Source: an uncultured bacterium (GTDB taxonomy: Bacteria > Krumholzibacteriota > Krumholzibacteriia > LZORAL124-64-63). Taken from it: DNA of 64,000 nucleotides. The notes below the pieces were generated by a model. It made no database searches and was not told the origin of the DNA. It saw only the letters and a list, made by a program, of their open reading frames with translations. The DNA is taken from NCBI GenBank assembly GCA_963727525.1, contig CAVSGO010000007.1, forward strand, positions 1,248,001 through 1,312,000, read 5' to 3'. Below, in pieces: positions 3,361 to 60,730 of the stretch. Each line of letters opens with the position of its first letter. Position 1 is the stretch's first letter. Made by a program: the position numbers and the translations under genes.

Positions 3361-4392
3361 CTACTCCCGCACCTCCTCTTCGGGCACCATCTCCGACACC
3401 AGCGCCACGCTGAACGCATCCGCGTCGAACACCGCGAGGTCGTCGACCGTCTCCCCCATGCCGACGTACTTCACGGGTAGCCCGATCGACTCGGCGATGG
3501 CGACCACGATTCCGCCCTTGGCGGTGCCGTCGAGCTTGGTCAAGAAGAGCCCCTCCACCGGGATCGTCTCCGCGAAGATCTTTGCCTGCTGCAGGCCATT
3601 CTGCCCGGTGTTCGCATCGACCACCAGCAACGTCTCGGGATCGCGGCCCGTGCGCTTGCGAATCACGCGAGCGACCTTGGCGAGCTCATCCATGAGGTTG
3701 GTCTTGGTGTGCAATCGCCCCGCCGTGTCGACGATCACCACGTCGCAACCGCGCGCCGCGGCCGCGTTCAGAGCGTCGTACACGACGGCCGCGGGGTCGG
3801 CGCCGTGCCCCTGGGACACGCAGGGCACGCCCACGCGGTCGGCCCAGACCTGGAGCTGCTCGACGGCAGCAGCGCGGAACGTGTCGCCCGCGGCCAGCAG
3901 CACCGAACGACCCTCGTCCTTGTACAGCTTGGCGAGCTTGGCGATGGAGGTCGTCTTGCCGGTACCGTTCACGCCGACCACGAAGATGACCTGCAACGCA
4001 GCCGCCGCCGCGTCGACGGCGGGCGCCTCCGCGGCGGCAGCGTCGCGCTTCTTCTTCGACTTCTTGCCGCCACTGTCCAGCGCATCCTCCCACCGCGGCG
4101 GATGCACCTTGGGTTTCGCCTCGGTGAGGATCTTGCGCACGTCGCCGCGGATGATGCCCACCACCGAGGCCAGCGTGGCCTCGCCCTTCTCTTCGCGCAC
4201 GCGCTTCTCGATGTTGCGCGTGATGGCGACGGCCGACTGCACGCCCATGTCGGCGGAGATGAGCAGTTCCTCGAGCTGGTCGAGGGTGTCCTCGTCGAGC
4301 TTCACGCCGCCGCGGAAGAGCTTCTGCAGCCCACCCACCATGTTGTCGCGGGTCTTGGTCATACCCTGCTTGAAGCGATCGAACAGCCCCAT
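3361..4392 (-). CDS. ftsY: SRP receptor FtsY
   Basis: GVNGTGKTT, DTFRAAA, DTAGR, TKLDGTAKGG. Confidence 0.97.
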   Translation of the reverse strand: MGLFDRFKQGMTKTRDNMVGGLQKLFRGGVKLDEDTLDQLEELLISADMGVQSAVAITRNIEKRVREEKGEATLASVVGIIRGDVRKILTEAKPKVHPPRWEDALDSGGKKSKKKRDAAAAEAPAVDAAAAALQVIFVVGVNGTGKTTSIAKLAKLYKDEGRSVLLAAGDTFRAAAVEQLQVWADRVGVPCVSQGHGADPAAVVYDALNAAAARGCDVVIVDTAGRLHTKTNLMDELAKVARVIRKRTGRDPETLLVVDANTGQNGLQQAKIFAETIPVEGLFLTKLDGTAKGGIVVAIAESIGLPVKYVGMGETVDDLAVFDADAFSVALVSEMVPEEEVRE

Positions 4393-7300
4393 CAGCCGGT
4401 GGCCTCCCCAGTCTCGGGTTCCGCGGTCGCCATCTCGTCGTCGGACTCGTCGGCGGCCGGCGCCTTCGCGTCCTCCGTCCGGTCGATGTCCTGTCGCCGC
4501 GAGGCGATCGCGCCCGCCAGTTCGGCGTCGCTCTGCGTCTGCGCCACGTCCTTGAACGACACCGACACGACGCTGGAGACGCCCTGCTCCATCATGGTGA
4601 CGCCGTAGAGATGGTTGGCCGTTTCCATGGTGAGTTTGTTGTGCGTGATCACGAGGAACTGCGTGTTCTTCGAAAACTCGCGCAGCATGGTGACGAAGCG
4701 GCCGATGTTCGTGTCATCGAGGGGCGCGTCGGCCTCGTCGAGCATGCAGAAGGGCGACGGCTTCACGAGGTACACGGCGAAGAGGATCGACAGGGCTGTG
4801 AGGCAACGCTCGCCGCCCGAGAGCAGCGACACGTGGTCGATCACCTTGCCCGTGGGCTGGGCCACGATCTGGATCTCGCTTTCCAGCGGGTCGTCGGTCT
4901 TCTGCAGGATGAGGTCGGCACGCCCGCCGCGGAAGAGCGTCTGGAACACCGCGACGTAGTTGCGGCGCACCTCCTCGAAGGTATCCGCGAAGAGCTTGCG
5001 CGCCGTGCGGTTGATCTCGCCGATCGCCTTCTCGAGATCGGCCCGGGCCTTGGACACGTCCGTCTGCTGGCCGGTGAGGAATTCGAGGCGCACCTTCTTG
5101 GTGTCATACTCCTCGAGGGCGAGGTGGTTGATCGGCCCCAGCGATGCGAGCTGCTGCTTCTTGTCGTTCAGCAGCGATTCGGCCTGGCTGAACTGGAAGA
5201 CGCCCTCCTCGCGTTCCAGCTCTCGCGGCAGGTGCTCGGGATCCACCTGGGCGACCAGCTCGGCAAACCCGCCAGTGTACTGCTCCTCGATCCTCTCCTC
5301 GAGGTTGTTGCGGCGCAGGTCGAGGGTGGCGAGCTCGGTCTCGAGCTGGTGGATCTGATCGCGGCAGCCGGTGCGCTGGTCCTCGATGGCCTTCGTACGG
5401 TCGTGCCACTGCGCCGTCTGCTGGTGCAGCTCCTGGATCGCCGCCGCCGCATTGCGCAGGATGGAGCGACGACGCTCCCGTTCCTGGAACTGGCCCATCA
5501 GCACGTCACGGCGCTCGGCGAGGTCGGTGTCGAGCTTCTCGGCCTCGGCGCGCTGGTGTTCTCCCTCCTGAACCAGACGCTCGCGGCGTCCCAGCAGCTC
5601 GGTGAGATTCTGACGCAGGTGAGACAGCGTGGTCTCGGCCTGGCGGCGCTCCCCCTCGCGGCGCTGCTGCACCAGGCGTTGCTCCTCGAGGGTGTATCGC
5701 AGCTCGTCGCGCCGCGCCTCGGCCTCCTGCACGCGGGTGCGTAGCTCGTCGCGGCGCACGGTGGTGTCCTGCCGTTGCTGCGTGGACGCGCTGAGGCGGT
5801 CCTGCAGCGCCTGCTCCTGTTCGGTCAGCTCGGCTATGGCGGTGGCAAGGCGTCCGCCCTCGGTCTGGAGGTCGTCGCGGCGGCGCAGGGCCGCCTGACG
5901 ACGGTCATCGAGCTGGGCAAGGGCCACTTGCGCGGTGTTCAGCTCGGCGTCGAGGGCCGCAAGATCCTCGCGCCCCTGCTGCAGCAGCCGCCGCAGCTCC
6001 TCCCGTCGGGTCTGGTTGGCGGCGACGGCAGCGGTGGCCGCGGCCACGCGCGCCTCGAGCGACTCCACCTCGGCCGCGAGCTGGTCGAGCTTGTCGCCGC
6101 GCCCGAGGACGCTCACCTCGCCGCGCTCCCGCGCGCCGCCGCGCACGAGGCCATCGGAGGTGATCAACAGACCGCTCGGCGACAGGCACACCAGCGGCGC
6201 CTCGCCAGTATGGTTGCGCGCCGCGGCCAGAGCCGCGTCGTCGTCGCGGCACAGCACGGTGCGCGCGAGCAGACGATGCAGGTATGGCAGCGCCACCGCT
6301 GGACCGGTGGCCACATCGAGAGCCGGCGTGGCGCCATCCAACCGCACGATCTCGCCGGCAGGCCCCTTTTCGACGTCGCACAGGAAAGTGGCCAGGCCAT
6401 GCTGACCCTCCCGCAGCTCGCCGGCAAGGGACGAGGCGAGACCCGGATCGCTGACCACGACGGCGTCGAGCATCTCCCCGCAGAGGATCTCGAAGGCGAG
6501 TGTCCACGCCTCGGGCACGCGCAAGGCATCGCCGAGGCCGCCACGCACCTCGTCGCGGTGGCCGTGGTGCGTCAGCACGTGCTTGGCGCCCTCGCCATAA
6601 CCCTGAAACTCGGAGGCCAGGGTCCGCAGCATGTCGAGGCGGCCCACGGCCGACTCGCGGCGGCCGGTGGCCATGGATAGATCGGCCTGCAGGTCCTGCC
6701 CGCGCACCTCGAGGTCGGTGGTCTGGCGCTCGGTGGCGGCAAGGTGATGCAGCAGGTCGCGCCGCCGCTCGCCGAGGCGATCGCGCGTCTCGCGGTGTGT
6801 GGTCACCTCGCTCTCGGCAGCCGCGGCCTCGCGGGCGAGCGTCTCGCGCTCCTCTTCCAGAAGTGTGAGACGCTCCTGCCGGTTCTCGCGCTTCACTTGC
6901 AGCTCGCGCACCTCGCTGCGGAAGCCGGCATCGGTCTCGATGACCTGCATGTTGAGCTGCACGGCGTCCTCGAGGGACGCGCGATCGCTCGCCAGCGCCT
7001 GATCCATGAGCTGCAGCTCCTCGGTGCGCTCGGCCAGCTCGGTCGCGGCGGCGGCGATGGCCTGCTCCACGTCCTGCAGGTGCTGCTCCATGCCAGTGAT
7101 GCGGGCGTCAACGTCTGTGTGCTGGGCGTCGGCCTCCTTGCCGCCCTGCTGCGCCTCCTCGCTGCGCCGGCGCAGCTCCACGATGCGCTGCTCGATGACC
7201 ACCACCTGGCGCTCGCATTCCTGCAGTTCCTCCTCGAACGCTTGCAGCGATTCCTCGAGCTGGCGTCGCTCGGCCTCGCGCTCGTCGATGAGCGGCCGTT

Positions 7301-54872: not shown

Positions 54873-55862
54873 ATGTTCGACAAGCAACGCCTGACCCTGG
54901 TCCGTCGTATGGTGATTGCGTGCACGGTGATCGGGTGCGTGGTGATCGCGGTGGTCGGGGTCGCTGCTGCCCAGGTTGCTCCGGTTGCTCCCCAGGCGAA
55001 TGCGGCGCCCCAGGACACCACCAGGGAAAAGACGTTCAATCTCTCGACGTCGCAGACCGCCGCGGTCGAGGCCGAGAAGGAAGAGACGCCCAGGGAGCGC
55101 TATGCCCCTCAGATCGAGGCCGGCAAGCTCGAGATCGGCCTCAGCCTCGGCTTCATGAACCTCAACAAGCAGCTTCTCGCGCTCGATCGCCTCATCTACA
55201 AGACCACTGATGACGCGTTCTTCTACGCCGACGTGACCATCAATGCCAAGTCGGCGTTCACGCCCGTGATCCGTGCGGCGTACAATCTCAACTCCTGGTT
55301 CGCGCTCGAGGGTCAACTGAACTTCACGTTCTCGGACTACGACGCAACGCTGACGAATCGCTACAAGGTCAGTCCGGAAGGGCCCGGGAGCACGGGTCCC
55401 CAACTCGTCGATCCCAGCGGTCCGGACGCGGGCGCTTACGACGCGGAGCACCGTTCGGTCCTCGGCGTCATCGCGGATCTCAACGCGATCGTCTATCCGC
55501 TCAACCTGCATGGTTCGCGAATCAGCCACTGGCAACCGTACCTGACGGGCGGTGTCGGTCGCGCGAGCTATACCATGGACTCCAATTACACCAGCGATCC
55601 CGCGACGGCGTTCGACGCCAACCTCGGAGGCGGCATTCGCCTCATCGCCGATGACCTGATCAGCTTGCGCTTCGAGATCGTGCAGCACTTCCACACCATC
55701 GAGTTCGCACCGTCGGAGTACTTCGATATACGCAACTCGGGCACGGTCAAGGTGCCGAACTATCAGTTCGATCAGGCCGGCTACTACTCGCGCGTGACGT
55801 CGTACCCTTCGGAGTCGCTCGGCAGCCTGGTCTGGTCCGTGGGGATCGTCGGATCCTTCTAG
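54873..55862 (+). CDS. Outer-membrane beta-barrel protein (OmpA/OmpW-like barrel)
   Basis: Signal peptide, WFALEG, QPYLTGGVG, NLGGGIR, terminal F. Confidence 0.75.
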   Translation: MFDKQRLTLVRRMVIACTVIGCVVIAVVGVAAAQVAPVAPQANAAPQDTTREKTFNLSTSQTAAVEAEKEETPRERYAPQIEAGKLEIGLSLGFMNLNKQLLALDRLIYKTTDDAFFYADVTINAKSAFTPVIRAAYNLNSWFALEGQLNFTFSDYDATLTNRYKVSPEGPGSTGPQLVDPSGPDAGAYDAEHRSVLGVIADLNAIVYPLNLHGSRISHWQPYLTGGVGRASYTMDSNYTSDPATAFDANLGGGIRLIADDLISLRFEIVQHFHTIEFAPSEYFDIRNSGTVKVPNYQFDQAGYYSRVTSYPSESLGSLVWSVGIVGSF

Positions 55863-57394
55863 CTTCCCGCCGATCCGGCCCACCCCGGCAACGCCTCGCG
55901 GCGGAACTGCAGCGCGTCTCGCACGTGTGCGGCTCCGACCAGCGATTCCCCCTCGAGAGCCGCCGCCGTGCGCGCCACACGGCACGCCCGGAGTACCGCG
56001 CGTGGCGACAGGCCCAGAGGGCGGCGTGCCGCATCCAGATAGGCAAGCGCTTCGGCGTCCAGTCCGTAGGACGCCACGCGGCGACGTAGCGACCAGTGAG
56101 CCGGCGGTTCCCCGCTCGCCTGCAACAGTCGATGTGCGCGCACGAGACGCGACCCGAGACGGGCGAGGTCCAGCGGTGGCGCAGAGGCGTCGCCGATCGG
56201 CTCGTCCCCCATGTCGACACAGAGATCGAAGCGATCGAGGAGCGGTCCGGACAGGCGACCACGGTAGCGGGCCACCCGCGCGGGCGGGCACGTGCAGGCA
56301 CGGATCCGGCTGCCCAAATACCCACAACGGCAGGGGTTCATCGCCGCGACCAGCTGGAAGCGCGCCGGGTAGCGGCGCCGCCCCGGTCCCCGGGCCACCC
56401 GGACCATCCCCTCCTCCAGCGGTTCGCGCAACGCATCCAGCGCCGCGGCGGAGAACTCGGCCGTCTCGTCGAGGAAGAGCACTCCGCGGTGCGCGAGCGT
56501 CACCTCGCCCGGGAGCAAACGGGTGCCGCCTCCGACGAGGCCGGCCACCGTGATCGAGTGATGCGGCGCCCGGAGCGGCGCGCGCCGCACGAGGCCGGGT
56601 GCCCGCAGCAATCCGGCCGCGCTATGGATGCGGGTCACCTCGAGTCCCGCATCCATATCCAGCGGCGGATGCAATGCCGCCACGAAGCGCGCCAGGCGCG
56701 TCTTGCCCACGCCGGGCGGCCCCACGAGCAGCAGATGATGGCCGCCGGTAGCCGCCAGGACAGCCGCCCGCGCGGCCAGCGGCTGGGCCGCCAGATCGAG
56801 ATCGGCGGGCAATTGCGGCCACGGAGGCGGCGACGTCGGCTCGCGGTGCGCCGCGGGAGCCGGCGGTACGCCGTCGAACCACCAGGATGCGGCCTCGCGT
56901 AGCGTGCGCACGCCGTGCACCTGCAGACCGGGCACCAGGGCTGCCTCCCAGGCCTGCGCTGCCGGGACCACCACGACATGATCGCCGCGAGCCGCCGCGT
57001 CGAGGACGATTCCGAGCAGCCCCCGCACCGGACGCACGTCGCCGAAGAGCGACAGCTCGCCCACGACGAGCGCCGACAGGTCCGGGACGGGCTGATGGTG
57101 CTCCCGCCGACGCTGAGCCGCAAGCACGGCCAGAGCGATGGCGAGATCGTGACACGCGCCTTCCTTGCGCACGTCGGCCGGCGCGAGGTTCACCGTCACC
57201 TTTCCCGATGGAAATGCGAAGCCGCTGTTGCGAATGGCGGCCAGCACGCGCTCTCGGCTTTCCCTGACGGCCGTATTGGGCAGGCCGACGAGATGAAAGG
57301 CCGGTAGCCCGCGCGCGATGTCGACCTCGACCCGCACGGCGTAGCCCGTGATCCCCACCAGTCCACCGGATCGAACGTCGCACGTCACGCTCAC
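55859..57394 (-). CDS. comM: YifB/ComM Mg-chelatase-like AAA ATPase
   Basis: VRESRERV, NLAPAD, GPPGVGKT, RAPHHS, GVLFLDE, AMNPCRCG, SGPLLDRFD. Confidence 0.93.
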   Translation of the reverse strand: MSVTCDVRSGGLVGITGYAVRVEVDIARGLPAFHLVGLPNTAVRESRERVLAAIRNSGFAFPSGKVTVNLAPADVRKEGACHDLAIALAVLAAQRRREHHQPVPDLSALVVGELSLFGDVRPVRGLLGIVLDAAARGDHVVVVPAAQAWEAALVPGLQVHGVRTLREAASWWFDGVPPAPAAHREPTSPPPWPQLPADLDLAAQPLAARAAVLAATGGHHLLLVGPPGVGKTRLARFVAALHPPLDMDAGLEVTRIHSAAGLLRAPGLVRRAPLRAPHHSITVAGLVGGGTRLLPGEVTLAHRGVLFLDETAEFSAAALDALREPLEEGMVRVARGPGRRRYPARFQLVAAMNPCRCGYLGSRIRACTCPPARVARYRGRLSGPLLDRFDLCVDMGDEPIGDASAPPLDLARLGSRLVRAHRLLQASGEPPAHWSLRRRVASYGLDAEALAYLDAARRPLGLSPRAVLRACRVARTAAALEGESLVGAAHVRDALQFRREALPGWAGSAGS

Positions 57395-57626
57395 CTCCCA
57401 GATCCGACGGCCCGGAGCAAGGCGAGGTCCAGTTGCGCGTGTCGGCGATGGAGGGGCGGGAAGGCTCGATAGCGGGAGGCGATGGGCGCGGGGCCGTATC
57501 CGCGGCGCGGCGACGCGCGCCGTCACCGCCGGGCGACGCGGCCGGTCCGGATCGTCAACGTCGCGGCGGGGCTCCCAGGGGGAACCCCGCCGTGATCCTG
57601 CGTACCGACGAGCACCGGCTGCGGGT

Positions 57627-57797
57627 CTAGAGATCCTGCGGGCGCACCGTCTTGCGACCGTTGGCGACTGCGCGCTCCTCGGCCTTGGCGATCAGCTGAC
57701 GCACCTTGGCGTCGAGGGCATCGTAGAATTCACCGGACACGTTACACTCGCGAACTGCTTCCTTCGTCTTCGTCTTGCTGATGATCATCTCGGCCAT
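57627..57797 (-). CDS. Bacterial histone-fold protein, 56 aa (missing from the ORF track)
   Basis: MAEMIISKTKTKEAVRECNVSGEFYDALDAKVRQLIAKAEERAVANGRKTVRPQDL*; GGAGG SD 7 nt before ATG; G/C-ending codons; RKTVxxxD motif. Confidence 0.9.
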   Translation of the reverse strand: MAEMIISKTKTKEAVRECNVSGEFYDALDAKVRQLIAKAEERAVANGRKTVRPQDL

Positions 57798-57981
57798 GAG
57801 GGATCCTCCCTTTGTACGTGATTCCGGGCGCTATCGGCGCAATGCCGGCCAGAAGCGTGCCGGCACACGATCGCGCCGACCTCTGGGGCTGTCAAGGCAC
57901 CATTTGCCAATCCGCGCCGCCTGGAGCATCCTGTGACCGTGCACCCGACATTCGCCGCACGATCCCGCAAGGAGCCTCAAG

Positions 57982-59349
57982 ATGAGCATCGACAAGGTCC
58001 TGGCCTATCTCGACACCCACGCTGACAGCCACGTCGATCAGCTCTGCACGTGGCTGCGCATCCCCTCGATCAGTTCGCTCGCCGACCACCGACCGCACGT
58101 TGAACGCGCAGCCGCCTTCGTGGCCGATGAGTTGCGTGCGCTCGGCCTTGGCGTGGACGTCATCACCGGCGACGGCAATCCCCTCGTGTACGCCGAGACC
58201 GAGCAACGCCCGGACCGGCCCACCCTGCTGTTCTACGGACACTACGACGTGCAACCCGTCGATCCGCTACCGCTGTGGACCAGTCCGCCCTTCGAACCGG
58301 TGGTGAAGGACGGCATCGTCTATGCGCGTGGCGCGAGCGACGACAAGGGCCAGCTCTACGCGCACGTCAAGGCGGTCGAAGCGTATGTGAAGACCGGGAC
58401 CCAGCTCCCCGTGAACGTGAAGTTCATCATCGAGGGCGAGGAGGAGTGCGGCGGCCATACTATCTACGCGTACACGGAGCAGCATGCCGACCGCCTCGCG
58501 TGCGATGCCGTGGTCATCAGCGACACCACGCTCTACAACGAGAAGACGCCGGCGATCTGCTACTCGCTCAAGGGCCTCACGTACATGGAGGTCCGCCTCA
58601 CCGGTCCCGCCAAGGATCTGCACTCCGGAAGCTATGGCGGCGTGGTGCAGAATCCCGCCAACGCGATGAGCACGATCATCGCAGCGCTGAAGGACGGGCA
58701 AGGGCGATGCCGCGTCCCCGGCTTCTACGACGACGTCGTCGCGCTCGATGACGACGAGCGCGCGGCGTTCGCGCGGCTGCACTACACCGACGACATCCTG
58801 CGCGACGAGACCGGCGCGCCGGCCGCATTCGGAGAGACCGGATTCACGACGCTCGAGCGCATGTGGGCGCGGCCGACCTGCGACGTCAACGGCCTCGCCA
58901 GCGGCTACGATGGCGAGGGCGCCAAGACCATCATCCCTGCCACGGCCATGGCGAAGGTGAGCATGCGCCTGGTGCCCGATCAGGATCCCGAGAAGATCGC
59001 GGCCGCGTTCACCGACTACGTGCGCTCCGTGTGCCCTCCGGGCGTGGTCTGCGAGATCGAGAACCTGCACAACGCGAGCCCGGTGCTGGTACCGCGCGAC
59101 TCGTCCCTGATGCAGGCCGGTCGACGCGCGTTGCAACACGGCTTCGGCGCCGAACCCGTGTTCATCCGCGAGGGCGGCAGCATTCCGATCGTGGGGACGT
59201 TCCAATCCTGCCTGCGGGTTCCGGTCCTGCTGCTCGGATACGGCCTCTCCACCGACAACATCCATAGTCCAAATGAGAAGTTCGATCTGGTGAATTTCCG
59301 CGCGGGCGCGCGAACCACCGCCCATCTCCTCCAGGAGGCCGCGAGCTGA
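57982..59349 (+). CDS. M20 family dipeptidase
   Basis: YGHYDVQP, ARGASDDKG, EGEEE, DLHSG, GGSIP, HSPNE. Confidence 0.93.
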   Translation: MSIDKVLAYLDTHADSHVDQLCTWLRIPSISSLADHRPHVERAAAFVADELRALGLGVDVITGDGNPLVYAETEQRPDRPTLLFYGHYDVQPVDPLPLWTSPPFEPVVKDGIVYARGASDDKGQLYAHVKAVEAYVKTGTQLPVNVKFIIEGEEECGGHTIYAYTEQHADRLACDAVVISDTTLYNEKTPAICYSLKGLTYMEVRLTGPAKDLHSGSYGGVVQNPANAMSTIIAALKDGQGRCRVPGFYDDVVALDDDERAAFARLHYTDDILRDETGAPAAFGETGFTTLERMWARPTCDVNGLASGYDGEGAKTIIPATAMAKVSMRLVPDQDPEKIAAAFTDYVRSVCPPGVVCEIENLHNASPVLVPRDSSLMQAGRRALQHGFGAEPVFIREGGSIPIVGTFQSCLRVPVLLLGYGLSTDNIHSPNEKFDLVNFRAGARTTAHLLQEAAS

Positions 59350-59487: not shown

Positions 59488-59913
59488 TCAGCGGCCGCGC
59501 ACCTTGCCCCCGGTGCGTTTCCTCCCCCGCAGCACCACCGTGTAGGAGCTGACGGCGAAGCCGGCGAGGCCATCCACGTTGCGCACCTCGAGCGCGTCCC
59601 AGGGGATGTCGTGGATGACGCCTGTCTGCTCGTCGACGAAATGGTGATGGGCGTCGACGTTGGCGTCGAAGACGGTGGGGCCGTCGTCGAACTGCAGCGG
59701 GCTCAGGAGGCCCTTGCTCACGAAGAGGTTGAGGGTGTTGTAGATGGTGGCGCGCGAGATCACCGGAAGTTGCGCCTGCACCTCCTGCCACACCTGGTCG
59801 GCCGTGAGGTGGCGATCGCGACGTAGCACCACCAGCGCCACCGCCACCCGCTGCGTCGAGGGCTGGATCCCGTGTTGCCGCAAGATGGCTGTGATGTCCT
59901 GAGGATCACGCAT
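59488..59913 (-). CDS. Fur family regulator (PerR/Irr-like, no CxxC)
   Basis: STQR, HLTAD, ISRATIYNTL, FDANVDAHHHF. Confidence 0.9.
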   Translation of the reverse strand: MRDPQDITAILRQHGIQPSTQRVAVALVVLRRDRHLTADQVWQEVQAQLPVISRATIYNTLNLFVSKGLLSPLQFDDGPTVFDANVDAHHHFVDEQTGVIHDIPWDALEVRNVDGLAGFAVSSYTVVLRGRKRTGGKVRGR

Positions 59914-60006
59914 CGTCACACCATAGTCTCACTTCCGGATCCAATCAAATCGCAGCGCCGCCCGACCGGGACGGCGCCGCCAGTACGATCTTCGGGATCC
60001 GCGCGG

Positions 60007-60489
60007 CTACAGCGCCGGCCGCTCGTCGATGGGCGTATCGACATCCACGCGCAGGGCGCTGAGCATGTCGTGGTGCTGCTGCTCCTGCTGCGCAAGATCC
60101 TCGCAGACCGCTTGCAGACCCACATCGGTGAGCGAGTCACGCAGCTCGATGTAGCTATCGCGCGCGCGCGTTTCCATCCCGATGGCGAACTCGATCACGG
60201 CGCGCATCTCTCCGCGCACGATGAGATCGGTGGCCTCGACGCCCAGCGTACGCTCGGTGTCCTCCGCGAGCGTGGCGAGATACTGCGCCCCGTCCACGCC
60301 CTCGTGCTGCAGCAATACGCCGAATCGGTCCACGAGCAGTTCCGCGTGTCCGTTCTCCATCTCCGTGAGTTCAATGAAGACCATCTGCGATTCGCCGTCG
60401 CTCGTGATGTCCGCGGCCTTGGCGTAGAACACCTTGGCGCGCACCTCGTTCGCTATGGCGAGTTTGACGATATCGACAACCTTTTTCAT
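60007..60489 (-). CDS. Ferritin-like / rubrerythrin diiron-domain protein
   Basis: AIANE..FY, EMENGH, AIGME..Y, QEQQH; no rubredoxin domain. Confidence 0.85.
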   Translation of the reverse strand: MKKVVDIVKLAIANEVRAKVFYAKAADITSDGESQMVFIELTEMENGHAELLVDRFGVLLQHEGVDGAQYLATLAEDTERTLGVEATDLIVRGEMRAVIEFAIGMETRARDSYIELRDSLTDVGLQAVCEDLAQQEQQHHDMLSALRVDVDTPIDERPAL

Positions 60490-60730
60490 GGTCCGCCCCT
60501 TCGTGCTGACGCCGAGTCGTTGCCTGGCCACGCGAGCGCGTCGAAGGCAACGCCGGTGACCGTAGCGGCCATGATAATACCTGGCGAACCGACCGGAAAG
60601 CCAAGTCGGACCGAATCAGCTGTGGACCGGATCGAGCCGGTTCGGTCCGCGAGCTTGGTTCCGGCGCCCATTGCGACTAAGTTGGCGGCACCACGCAGAC
60701 GGAGGACCTCATGCCCAGGCGTCCCTTCCC

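Follow-up and report, generated by a model that had tools for sequence, protein, structure and literature searches.

Within the 64,000-nucleotide stretch of DNA that we analysed (the window), the minus strand carries at 57627–57797 a 56-codon gene that we assign to the histones, on the basis of its open reading frame, its fold and its sequence matches to solved histones. The product is a mildly basic protein of 56 amino acids, with a mass of 6.3 kDa and a pI of 8.9; it has 11 Lys and Arg residues against 9 Asp and Glu, and a net charge of only about +2. On the same strand, a Shine-Dalgarno sequence (GGGAGG, 57805–57810) lies 7 nt before the ATG, a probable sigma-70-type promoter is found further upstream (57867–57895), and a GC-rich hairpin with a 13-bp stem, which is a probable terminator, begins 35 nt past the stop codon (57564–57592). 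The downstream neighbour, also on the minus strand, encodes a ComM/YifB-type Mg-chelatase-like AAA+ ATPase (comM, 55859–57388), and the upstream neighbour, a divergent gene on the plus strand, encodes an M20-family peptidase (57982–59349), which is reported as context with no functional link claimed. Just past the peptidase gene a Fur-family regulator adjoins a rubrerythrin gene (59488–60531, minus strand), an ordinary iron/oxidative-stress pair. The genome, 4.66 Mb in 8 contigs and 96.7% complete, contains a single copy of the histone gene.

The minus-strand frame quoted in the earlier note was found in the window, and its translation is identical to the quoted 56-residue sequence. The note had called the gene unannotated, which is right for the ORF track that it was made from but not for the public protein collection, where an identical protein is already present; JGI lists relatives as 'histone H3/H4', and NCBI lists them as 'DUF1931 domain-containing protein' (Candidatus Krumholzibacteriia). 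The frame is very short, and long spurious ORFs are plentiful in the window, whose GC content, like that of the genome, is 68.6%; it could on these grounds be a chance ORF in GC-rich DNA. However, a word-indexed protein search returned 94 close homologues, most of them exactly 56 amino acids long and most with 69–95% identity, and an exhaustive HMMER search of 1.84 billion representatives returned 299 at E ≤ 1e-3, including 41 at E ≤ 1e-10. The frame is intact in 88 of the 89 extracted related loci, and over these 88 frames, 10 duplicate loci included, the mean pN was 0.135 against a mean pS of 0.50 (pN/pS 0.27). The GC content at codon positions 1, 2 and 3 is 0.62/0.39/0.80, as in the real genes of this genome; the corresponding values for an overlapping plus-strand ORF (57348–57821) are 0.75/0.64/0.65. 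A confident fold prediction was also obtained. This conservation refutes a chance origin, which we regard as practically out of the question, and the 56-codon gene is real and conserved.

Two alignments were used for the residue comparisons, one of the close family (A1, 31 rows) and a wider one that extends down to 45% identity (A2, 64 rows). The earlier note had suggested a search of related genomes, and it yielded conserved homologues in 35 of 41 related whole genomes; among the genomes of the same family the gene was found in 23 of 24, the sole miss being 88% complete. A sample of the whole phylum, Krumholzibacteriota, contained the gene in 134 of 201 genomes, or in 87 of the 125 of high quality. 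Its presence differs among the families of this sample: it is frequent in f1 (79/86), f2 (7/7), f4 (19/23), f6 (8/9) and f8 (11/12), and rare or not found in f3 (8/42), f5 (1/12), f7 (0/8) and f9 (0/1). The seven f1 genomes in which it was missed are 59–94% complete. As several of these families yielded few copies or none, some relatives seem able to do without the histone. A search of species-representative genomes with A1 confirmed 472 of 497 candidate stretches. The 80 loci kept from it all belong to metagenome-assembled genomes, labelled mostly Krumholzibacteriota, Krumholzibacteriia, 'uncultured Fibrobacteraceae' or 'bacterium', with a few labelled Eisenbacteria, Latescibacterota, Fibrobacter sp., Gemmatimonas or Gemmatimonadales. 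A tblastn search of phage records with the histone protein gave zero matches. Genomes of family f6, and some of f2 and f8, were also seen to contain a further, divergent histone gene; in three f6 genomes (G029:C10:9242-9406, G034:C1:291466-291630 and G039:C31:17712-17876) this second copy is 42–43% identical to the query.

The gene had been described in the earlier note as a stand-alone unit with a Shine-Dalgarno sequence, an upstream TTGACA and a downstream GC hairpin, and all of these signals were located in the window and are kept across relatives. The Shine-Dalgarno sequence reads GGGAGG at 57810–57805, and a similar motif occurs within the last 20 nt upstream of all 88 intact related frames (10 duplicate loci included). 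The TTGACA lies at 57895–57890 and is followed, after a 17-nt spacer, by GATCGT at 57872–57867; a promoter at this position would imply a 5' UTR of about 60 nt, counted from a putative transcription start. Of 78 unique related loci, 51 have an exact TTGACA at most 160 nt upstream on the coding strand and none has one on the opposite strand; shuffled sequences yield 1.5 on average and never more than 6. The hexamer 17 nt past it is GATTGT, GACGAT or CAAGAT in most of these 51 rows, as read by eye and uncounted, which gives the promoter the general form TTGACA-N17-GAxxxT across relatives. A generic sigma-70 promoter scan of 57300–58100 made no call there, because the -10 element matches the consensus at just three of six positions. 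The 5' UTR folds no better than its shuffles (z = 0.15), and no Rfam family matched 57200–58100 at E ≤ 1.

Downstream of the gene, the 91-nt stretch that contains the hairpin has a folding energy of -51.3 kcal/mol (z = -3.6), and none of 200 shuffles folds as well. Hairpins of -20 kcal/mol or lower occur within 100 nt downstream of the gene in 69 of 78 unique related loci, compared with 31 of 78 for the shuffled means, and T runs follow some of the printed hairpins of relatives. A generic terminator scan of 57300–58100 made no call, since the hairpin in the window has no T tract. The longest ORF of comM reaches up to 57526, but alignments with homologues begin only at about residue 33–51 and the GTG at 57388 is preceded by its own GGGAGG, so that the true start is probably about 46 codons further in; with this start, the intergenic gap between the histone gene and comM is about 238 nt. 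The hairpin probably separates the two genes as a terminator that lacks a T tract. Based on the conserved TTGACA, the Shine-Dalgarno sequence and the 3' hairpin, we argue that the histone gene is transcribed alone. The surrounding gene order is also well conserved: of 91 related loci, duplicates included, 80 have comM/yifB as the downstream same-strand gene, 83 have the M20 peptidase divergently upstream, and 65 have a gene for a beta-barrel outer-membrane protein beyond comM. In loci L026, L028, L057, L073, L074 and L080 the histone gene and comM stand further apart, with about 2 kb of additional DNA between them (around 4165–6170).

To describe the protein itself we used an AlphaFold2 model built from 64 sequences, which reached a pLDDT of 90.6. 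Its predicted helices are alpha1 (residues 8–14), alpha2 (22–45) and alpha3, reduced to a single turn (53–55). The nine best Foldseek matches among PDB entries are all alpha3 histones, namely HBb, HTkC and HLp, with TM scores of 0.83–0.91 and rmsd values of 0.9–1.4 Å; the next ones are NF-Y and nucleosomal histones, with TM scores of 0.42–0.63. The same structures were recovered by sequence with the single protein as query: 9F2C at E 2.2e-9, 8FVX/8FW7 at 1.7e-5, 8CMP/9EZZ/9F0E at 1.9e-5 and 9QT0–9QT2 at 7e-3. The first is HTkC, the archaeal FtF (face-to-face) histone of Thermococcus kodakarensis (PMC11390915); 8FVX and 8CMP are HBb/Bd0055, a 'bacterial dimer' histone; and 9QT0–9QT2 show HLp from Leptospira perolatii, a bacterial histone of the FtF type whose tetramer wraps about 60 bp (PMC12701072). 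In general family models the protein stays below threshold: it scores 19.8 bits with Pfam DUF1931 (PF09123), under the gathering threshold of 21.8 and over 34 of 138 model positions, and NCBIfam assigns it to no family. With CBFD_NFYB_HMF (PF00808) it scores 17.3 bits against a threshold of 21.4, which places it outside the nucleosomal archaeal group as defined by that model; nucleosomal HMfA is matched at E 0.015 with the A2 profile and at a TM score of 0.45.

According to Schwab et al. (2024), an alpha3-truncated histone has the histone fold, an alpha3 of 3–4 residues followed by the end of the chain, and an RxTxxxxD motif. The model shows the succession helix, loop, long helix, loop, helix; alpha3 is the turn at 53–55 and the chain stops after L56, at the same column in all A1 rows and in those A2 rows that were displayed; and the motif, known as the RD clamp, is found in loop L2, where R48, T50 and D55 are invariant in A1. 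The identification of the protein as an alpha3-truncated prokaryotic histone, proposed in the earlier note together with AlphaFold and Foldseek checks, is thus borne out by the superposition of the model on solved alpha3-truncated histones, and it is further backed by the sequence matches and the conservation.

Some features of the family deserve a separate description. Cysteines are unusual in such small histones; here Cys18, in the CNVSG at the start of loop L1 (codon 57744–57746), is conserved in 90% or more of the close family, and in the four-copy model described below it contacts the partner chain at residues 40 and 50. A Lys/Ala-rich N-terminal tail of about 25–45 residues, with AKKKATKKK runs, precedes the same 53-aa core in P0088, P0092, P0099, P0081 and P0166; unlike these relatives, the histone of the window has no N-terminal tail. 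Other proteins of about 97–119 amino acids (P0096, P0100, P0104, P0111 and P0113) consist of two tandem alpha3 folds joined by a short linker, a built-in dimer in which each copy keeps the RA.ANGRKT motif. In P0147, P0167 and P0199 the tandem folds stand behind an apparent signal peptide, recognised by eye from a hydrophobic stretch and AxA-like sites; if it is real, these would be histone-fold proteins located outside the cytoplasm.

Among alpha3-truncated histones, FtF members are defined by a closed tetramer and by a conserved Arg and Asn (R48 and N52 in the logo), both of which are missing in the bacterial dimers (Schwab et al. 2024, PMC11390915). The tetramer residues of HLp are R49, N53 and R55 (Hu et al. 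2025, PMC12701072), and the R45A substitution in HTkC turns the tetramer into a dimer as judged by SEC-MALS (preprint 10.64898/2025.12.06.692711). In our alignment R42, N46, R48, T50 and D55 correspond to R49, N53, R55, T57 and D62 of HLp, and R42 corresponds to R45 of HTkC. The Arg and Asn at the end of alpha2 are therefore both present, as R42 and N46 and with the same spacing, while HBb has S and D at these positions. All five residues are invariant in the 31 rows of A1; in the 64 rows of A2, T50 is invariant and R42, N46, R48 and D55 are each conserved in at least 90%. With the A1 profile the scores are 56.3 bits for HTkC, 32.4 for HLp and 28.7 for HBb; with the A2 profile they are 82.5, 55 and 54 bits, in the same order. 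Both solved FtF histones are thus ranked above HBb by the family profile, which we used as a proxy for the CLANS clustering of the original authors.

A model with four copies of the chain scored 0.89, whereas the highest of three controls reached 0.01; the scale had been calibrated with two copies, and there the mark was reached by 20 of 30 solved pairs and by 1 of 23 solved single chains. At least 98% of the contacts are common to the runs, and the pLDDT of the partner is 92. The scored copy contacts one other copy along its whole length, as in a handshake dimer, and the contact between dimers involves residues 41–42, 45–46, 48, 52 and 54–55. The multimer prediction suggested in the earlier note thus gave both a dimer and a confident closed tetramer, as expected for the FtF category, although the predictor differs from the AlphaFold2 used by the authors of that category and the result may reflect memory of the solved HTkC and HLp tetramers.

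The main alternative is a histone of the HBb/Bd0055 type, which would stay a dimer and bend DNA as HU does, without wrapping. The fold is shared equally well with HBb (TM 0.83–0.89), the Ser-Lys motif (S7-K8) is typical of bacterial singlets according to Hocher et al. (PMC10627809), the protein is, as in Bdellovibrio, a singlet without a tail that coexists with HU, and the tetramer is a prediction only. Nevertheless, the protein has both R42 and N46, which the bacterial dimer group lacks; of the three solved alpha3 histones, HBb fits the A1 profile least well (28.7 bits, compared with 56.3 for HTkC); the dimer-dimer contact is modelled with confidence on exactly the residues of the R42/N46 region; and the chain stops one residue past the clamp Asp as in HLp, whereas that of HBb continues. 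We consider a permanent dimer unlikely. The earlier note had grouped Bd0055, the Leptospira histones and the face-to-face histones together; the affinity with the FtF type, represented by HTkC and HLp, held up, but that with the Bd0055/HBb dimer type did not with regard to residues, profile and model. These data support a protein closer to the tetrameric FtF type than to the HBb type, which probably forms a four-subunit ring with DNA wrapped around it.

The reading that we favour, and hold to be likely, is that the gene encodes a nucleoid-associated FtF alpha3-truncated histone, forming a ring tetramer that wraps DNA, expressed from its own transcription unit and present alongside HU/IHF. Two chains would first form the predicted histone handshake dimer, and two dimers would close into the predicted ring tetramer by contacts that involve the C-terminus, loop L2 and the last part of alpha2, with R42 reaching the C-terminal carboxylate of the opposite dimer and N46 and R48 placed alongside. 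DNA of any sequence would be held on the outer rim by K8, K10, K12 and R16 of alpha1 and by the L1 and L2 loops (G22, K49, T50). The residues of HLp that contact DNA are A13, S14, K15, K17, K21, T27, G29, T56 and T57 (PMC12701072), and they align here with K8, T9, K10, K12, R16, V20, G22, K49 and T50, allowing for the two extra N-terminal residues of the crystallised chain. Eight of these nine positions hold the same, a basic or a hydroxyl residue in the window's histone, the exception being V20, where HLp has T27. For HLp and HTkC, wrapping of about 60 bp per tetramer has been shown, and by analogy we infer that the protein wraps roughly 60 bp irrespective of sequence. The gene would be transcribed alone, from the conserved TTGACA-N17-GAxxxT promoter to the hairpin terminator, and the histone would act alongside HU/IHF and not as a replacement for them.

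With regard to the cellular role, four loci of the HU/IHF family score above the Pfam cut-off in the genome, and the main chromatin protein is therefore not necessarily the histone. The situation resembles that of Bdellovibrio, which combines a histone with HU, and differs from that of Leptospira, where both HU and Dps are missing. Among the four HU/IHF genes, one (G000 C5:762573-762839, minus strand, locus L004) has a codon adaptation index (CAI) of 0.112, in the lowest percentile; this odd codon usage suggests a recent foreign origin or a mis-binned stretch. The CAI of the histone gene is 0.692, between the median of all genes (0.657) and that of the reference set of 25 ribosomal-cluster ORFs (0.707), but the genome shows little translational selection and the value says nothing either way. 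Its codon usage falls in the 67th percentile of all genes and the 53rd of length-matched segments, with no sign of high expression. A search for sequencing runs that match 56800–58600 listed one DNA run, with a 0.16 share of the sequence words, and none of RNA. High expression is nonetheless plausible, given the consensus -35 element, the strong Shine-Dalgarno sequence and the high expression of the FtF histones studied in Leptospira, Thermococcus and haloarchaea, which are described as highly expressed general DNA binders. On this analogy we infer abundance and a global architectural role for the protein, and the histone-based chromatin and abundant protein proposed in the earlier note keep the same standing.

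A protein with the histone fold could also have a specialised function, as a local regulator or as a partner of ComM acting on incoming or recombining DNA. The same-strand comM in most related loci fits this view, as do the HU/IHF proteins of the genome and the failure to find the gene in some families of the phylum among the sampled genomes, and not all prokaryotic histone-fold proteins need organise genomes (Schwab et al. 2024, PMC11390915). However, the two genes are separated by a conserved hairpin, which in some relatives is followed by T runs; the gap between them is about 238 nt and reaches about 2 kb in several loci; and a fixed gene order within one phylum is expected from descent alone. 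In addition, the residues that contact DNA and build the tetramer in characterised wrapping histones are also present here, and the FtF histones studied so far are general DNA binders with high expression. A specialised role therefore appears very unlikely to us, and a general nucleoid-associated histone remains the preferred reading.

Most of the framework for this interpretation was published between 2023 and 2025: the alpha3 family, its FtF subgroup, bacterial members, DNA wrapping, positively charged tails and the copies on haloarchaeal plasmids. The bacterial homes of FtF histones given in the main texts are Spirochaetota, Planctomycetota, Bdellovibrionota and Myxococcota (PMC11390915, PMC12701072), and 'Krumholz' does not occur in the main texts of Schwab 2024 (PMC11390915) and Hocher 2023 (PMC10627809), whose supplements may list these genomes. 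A literature search retrieved no paper that joins 'Krumholzibacteri*' with 'histone', although the supplementary tables of surveys may again include them. Our understanding of the alpha3/FtF family is unchanged by the Krumholzibacteriota histone. What this histone adds is a defined lineage in which a histone of the FtF type is near-universal in one family (79 of 86 genomes) at a fixed locus and beside HU/IHF; it also raises the question of how a wrapping histone and HU share one nucleoid.

To our knowledge, bacterial histones have been characterised only from 2023 onward, and two of them have been studied, HBb and HLp. HBb of Bdellovibrio bacteriovorus (Bd0055; 8FVX, 8CMP) has the same truncated fold, with TM scores of 0.83–0.89 and 37–40% identity, and shares with the window's histone the RKTV motif, the Ser-Lys motif and the coexistence with HU. 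It differs by the S and D at two tetramer positions, it is a strict dimer that bends DNA, and it has the lowest profile score of the three solved histones. HLp (9QT0–9QT2) is likewise a bacterial alpha3 histone, with TM scores of 0.89–0.91. The spacing of its triad is the same (R49/N53/R55 for R42/N46/R48), its RD clamp R55-D62 matches R48-D55, both chains end one residue past the clamp Asp, and most of its DNA-contact positions are conserved here. On the other hand, HLp is just 34% identical to the window's histone and scores 32.4 bits with the family profile. It has a short N-terminal tail and its host has neither HU nor Dps, in contrast with the tail-less protein and the four HU/IHF loci described here, and its gene neighbours are SMC, MAP and DUF350 instead of the M20 peptidase and ComM. 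A tail-less bacterial FtF protein would offer a comparison with the tailed HLp.

Among solved structures the best match is HTkC (TK1040 of T. kodakarensis, 9F2C), with 46% identity and an rmsd of 0.9 Å. Like the window's histone, it has no N-terminal tail, contains the Arg that closes the tetramer (R45, here R42) and coexists with other chromatin proteins. Unlike it, HTkC is archaeal and comes from a hyperthermophilic host, has a loop L1 that is four residues longer, has Glu where the Krumholzibacteriota family has the invariant N46, and lacks the Ser-Lys motif that is present here at the start of alpha1. Closer still in sequence are FtF histones of haloarchaeal plasmids, whose occurrence was already noted by Schwab et al.: identity is 50–52% over all 56 residues in the best 20 of 82 plasmid records, and all 82 cover at least 80% of the query. 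These copies, annotated as 'DUF1931 domain-containing protein' or 'DNA-binding protein', have the same length and are also tail-less, but they are archaeal, acidic and plasmid-borne.

The family is thus nearer to archaeal FtF histones (46% for HTkC and 50–52% for the haloarchaeal copies, with 20 listed of 82) than to the solved bacterial ones (34% for HLp and 37–40% for HBb), while bacterial and archaeal FtF histones have been reported as clearly separated clusters. A phylum-wide tail-less histone that is closer to archaeal FtF proteins, with a fixed locus and a consensus promoter, might point to a separate transfer from archaea to bacteria or to a link between archaeal and bacterial FtF histones; from the sequences compared here, we put this forward as a tentative and rather doubtful possibility. 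If it were true, the protein would be a major chromatin protein working with HU across a whole uncultured phylum.
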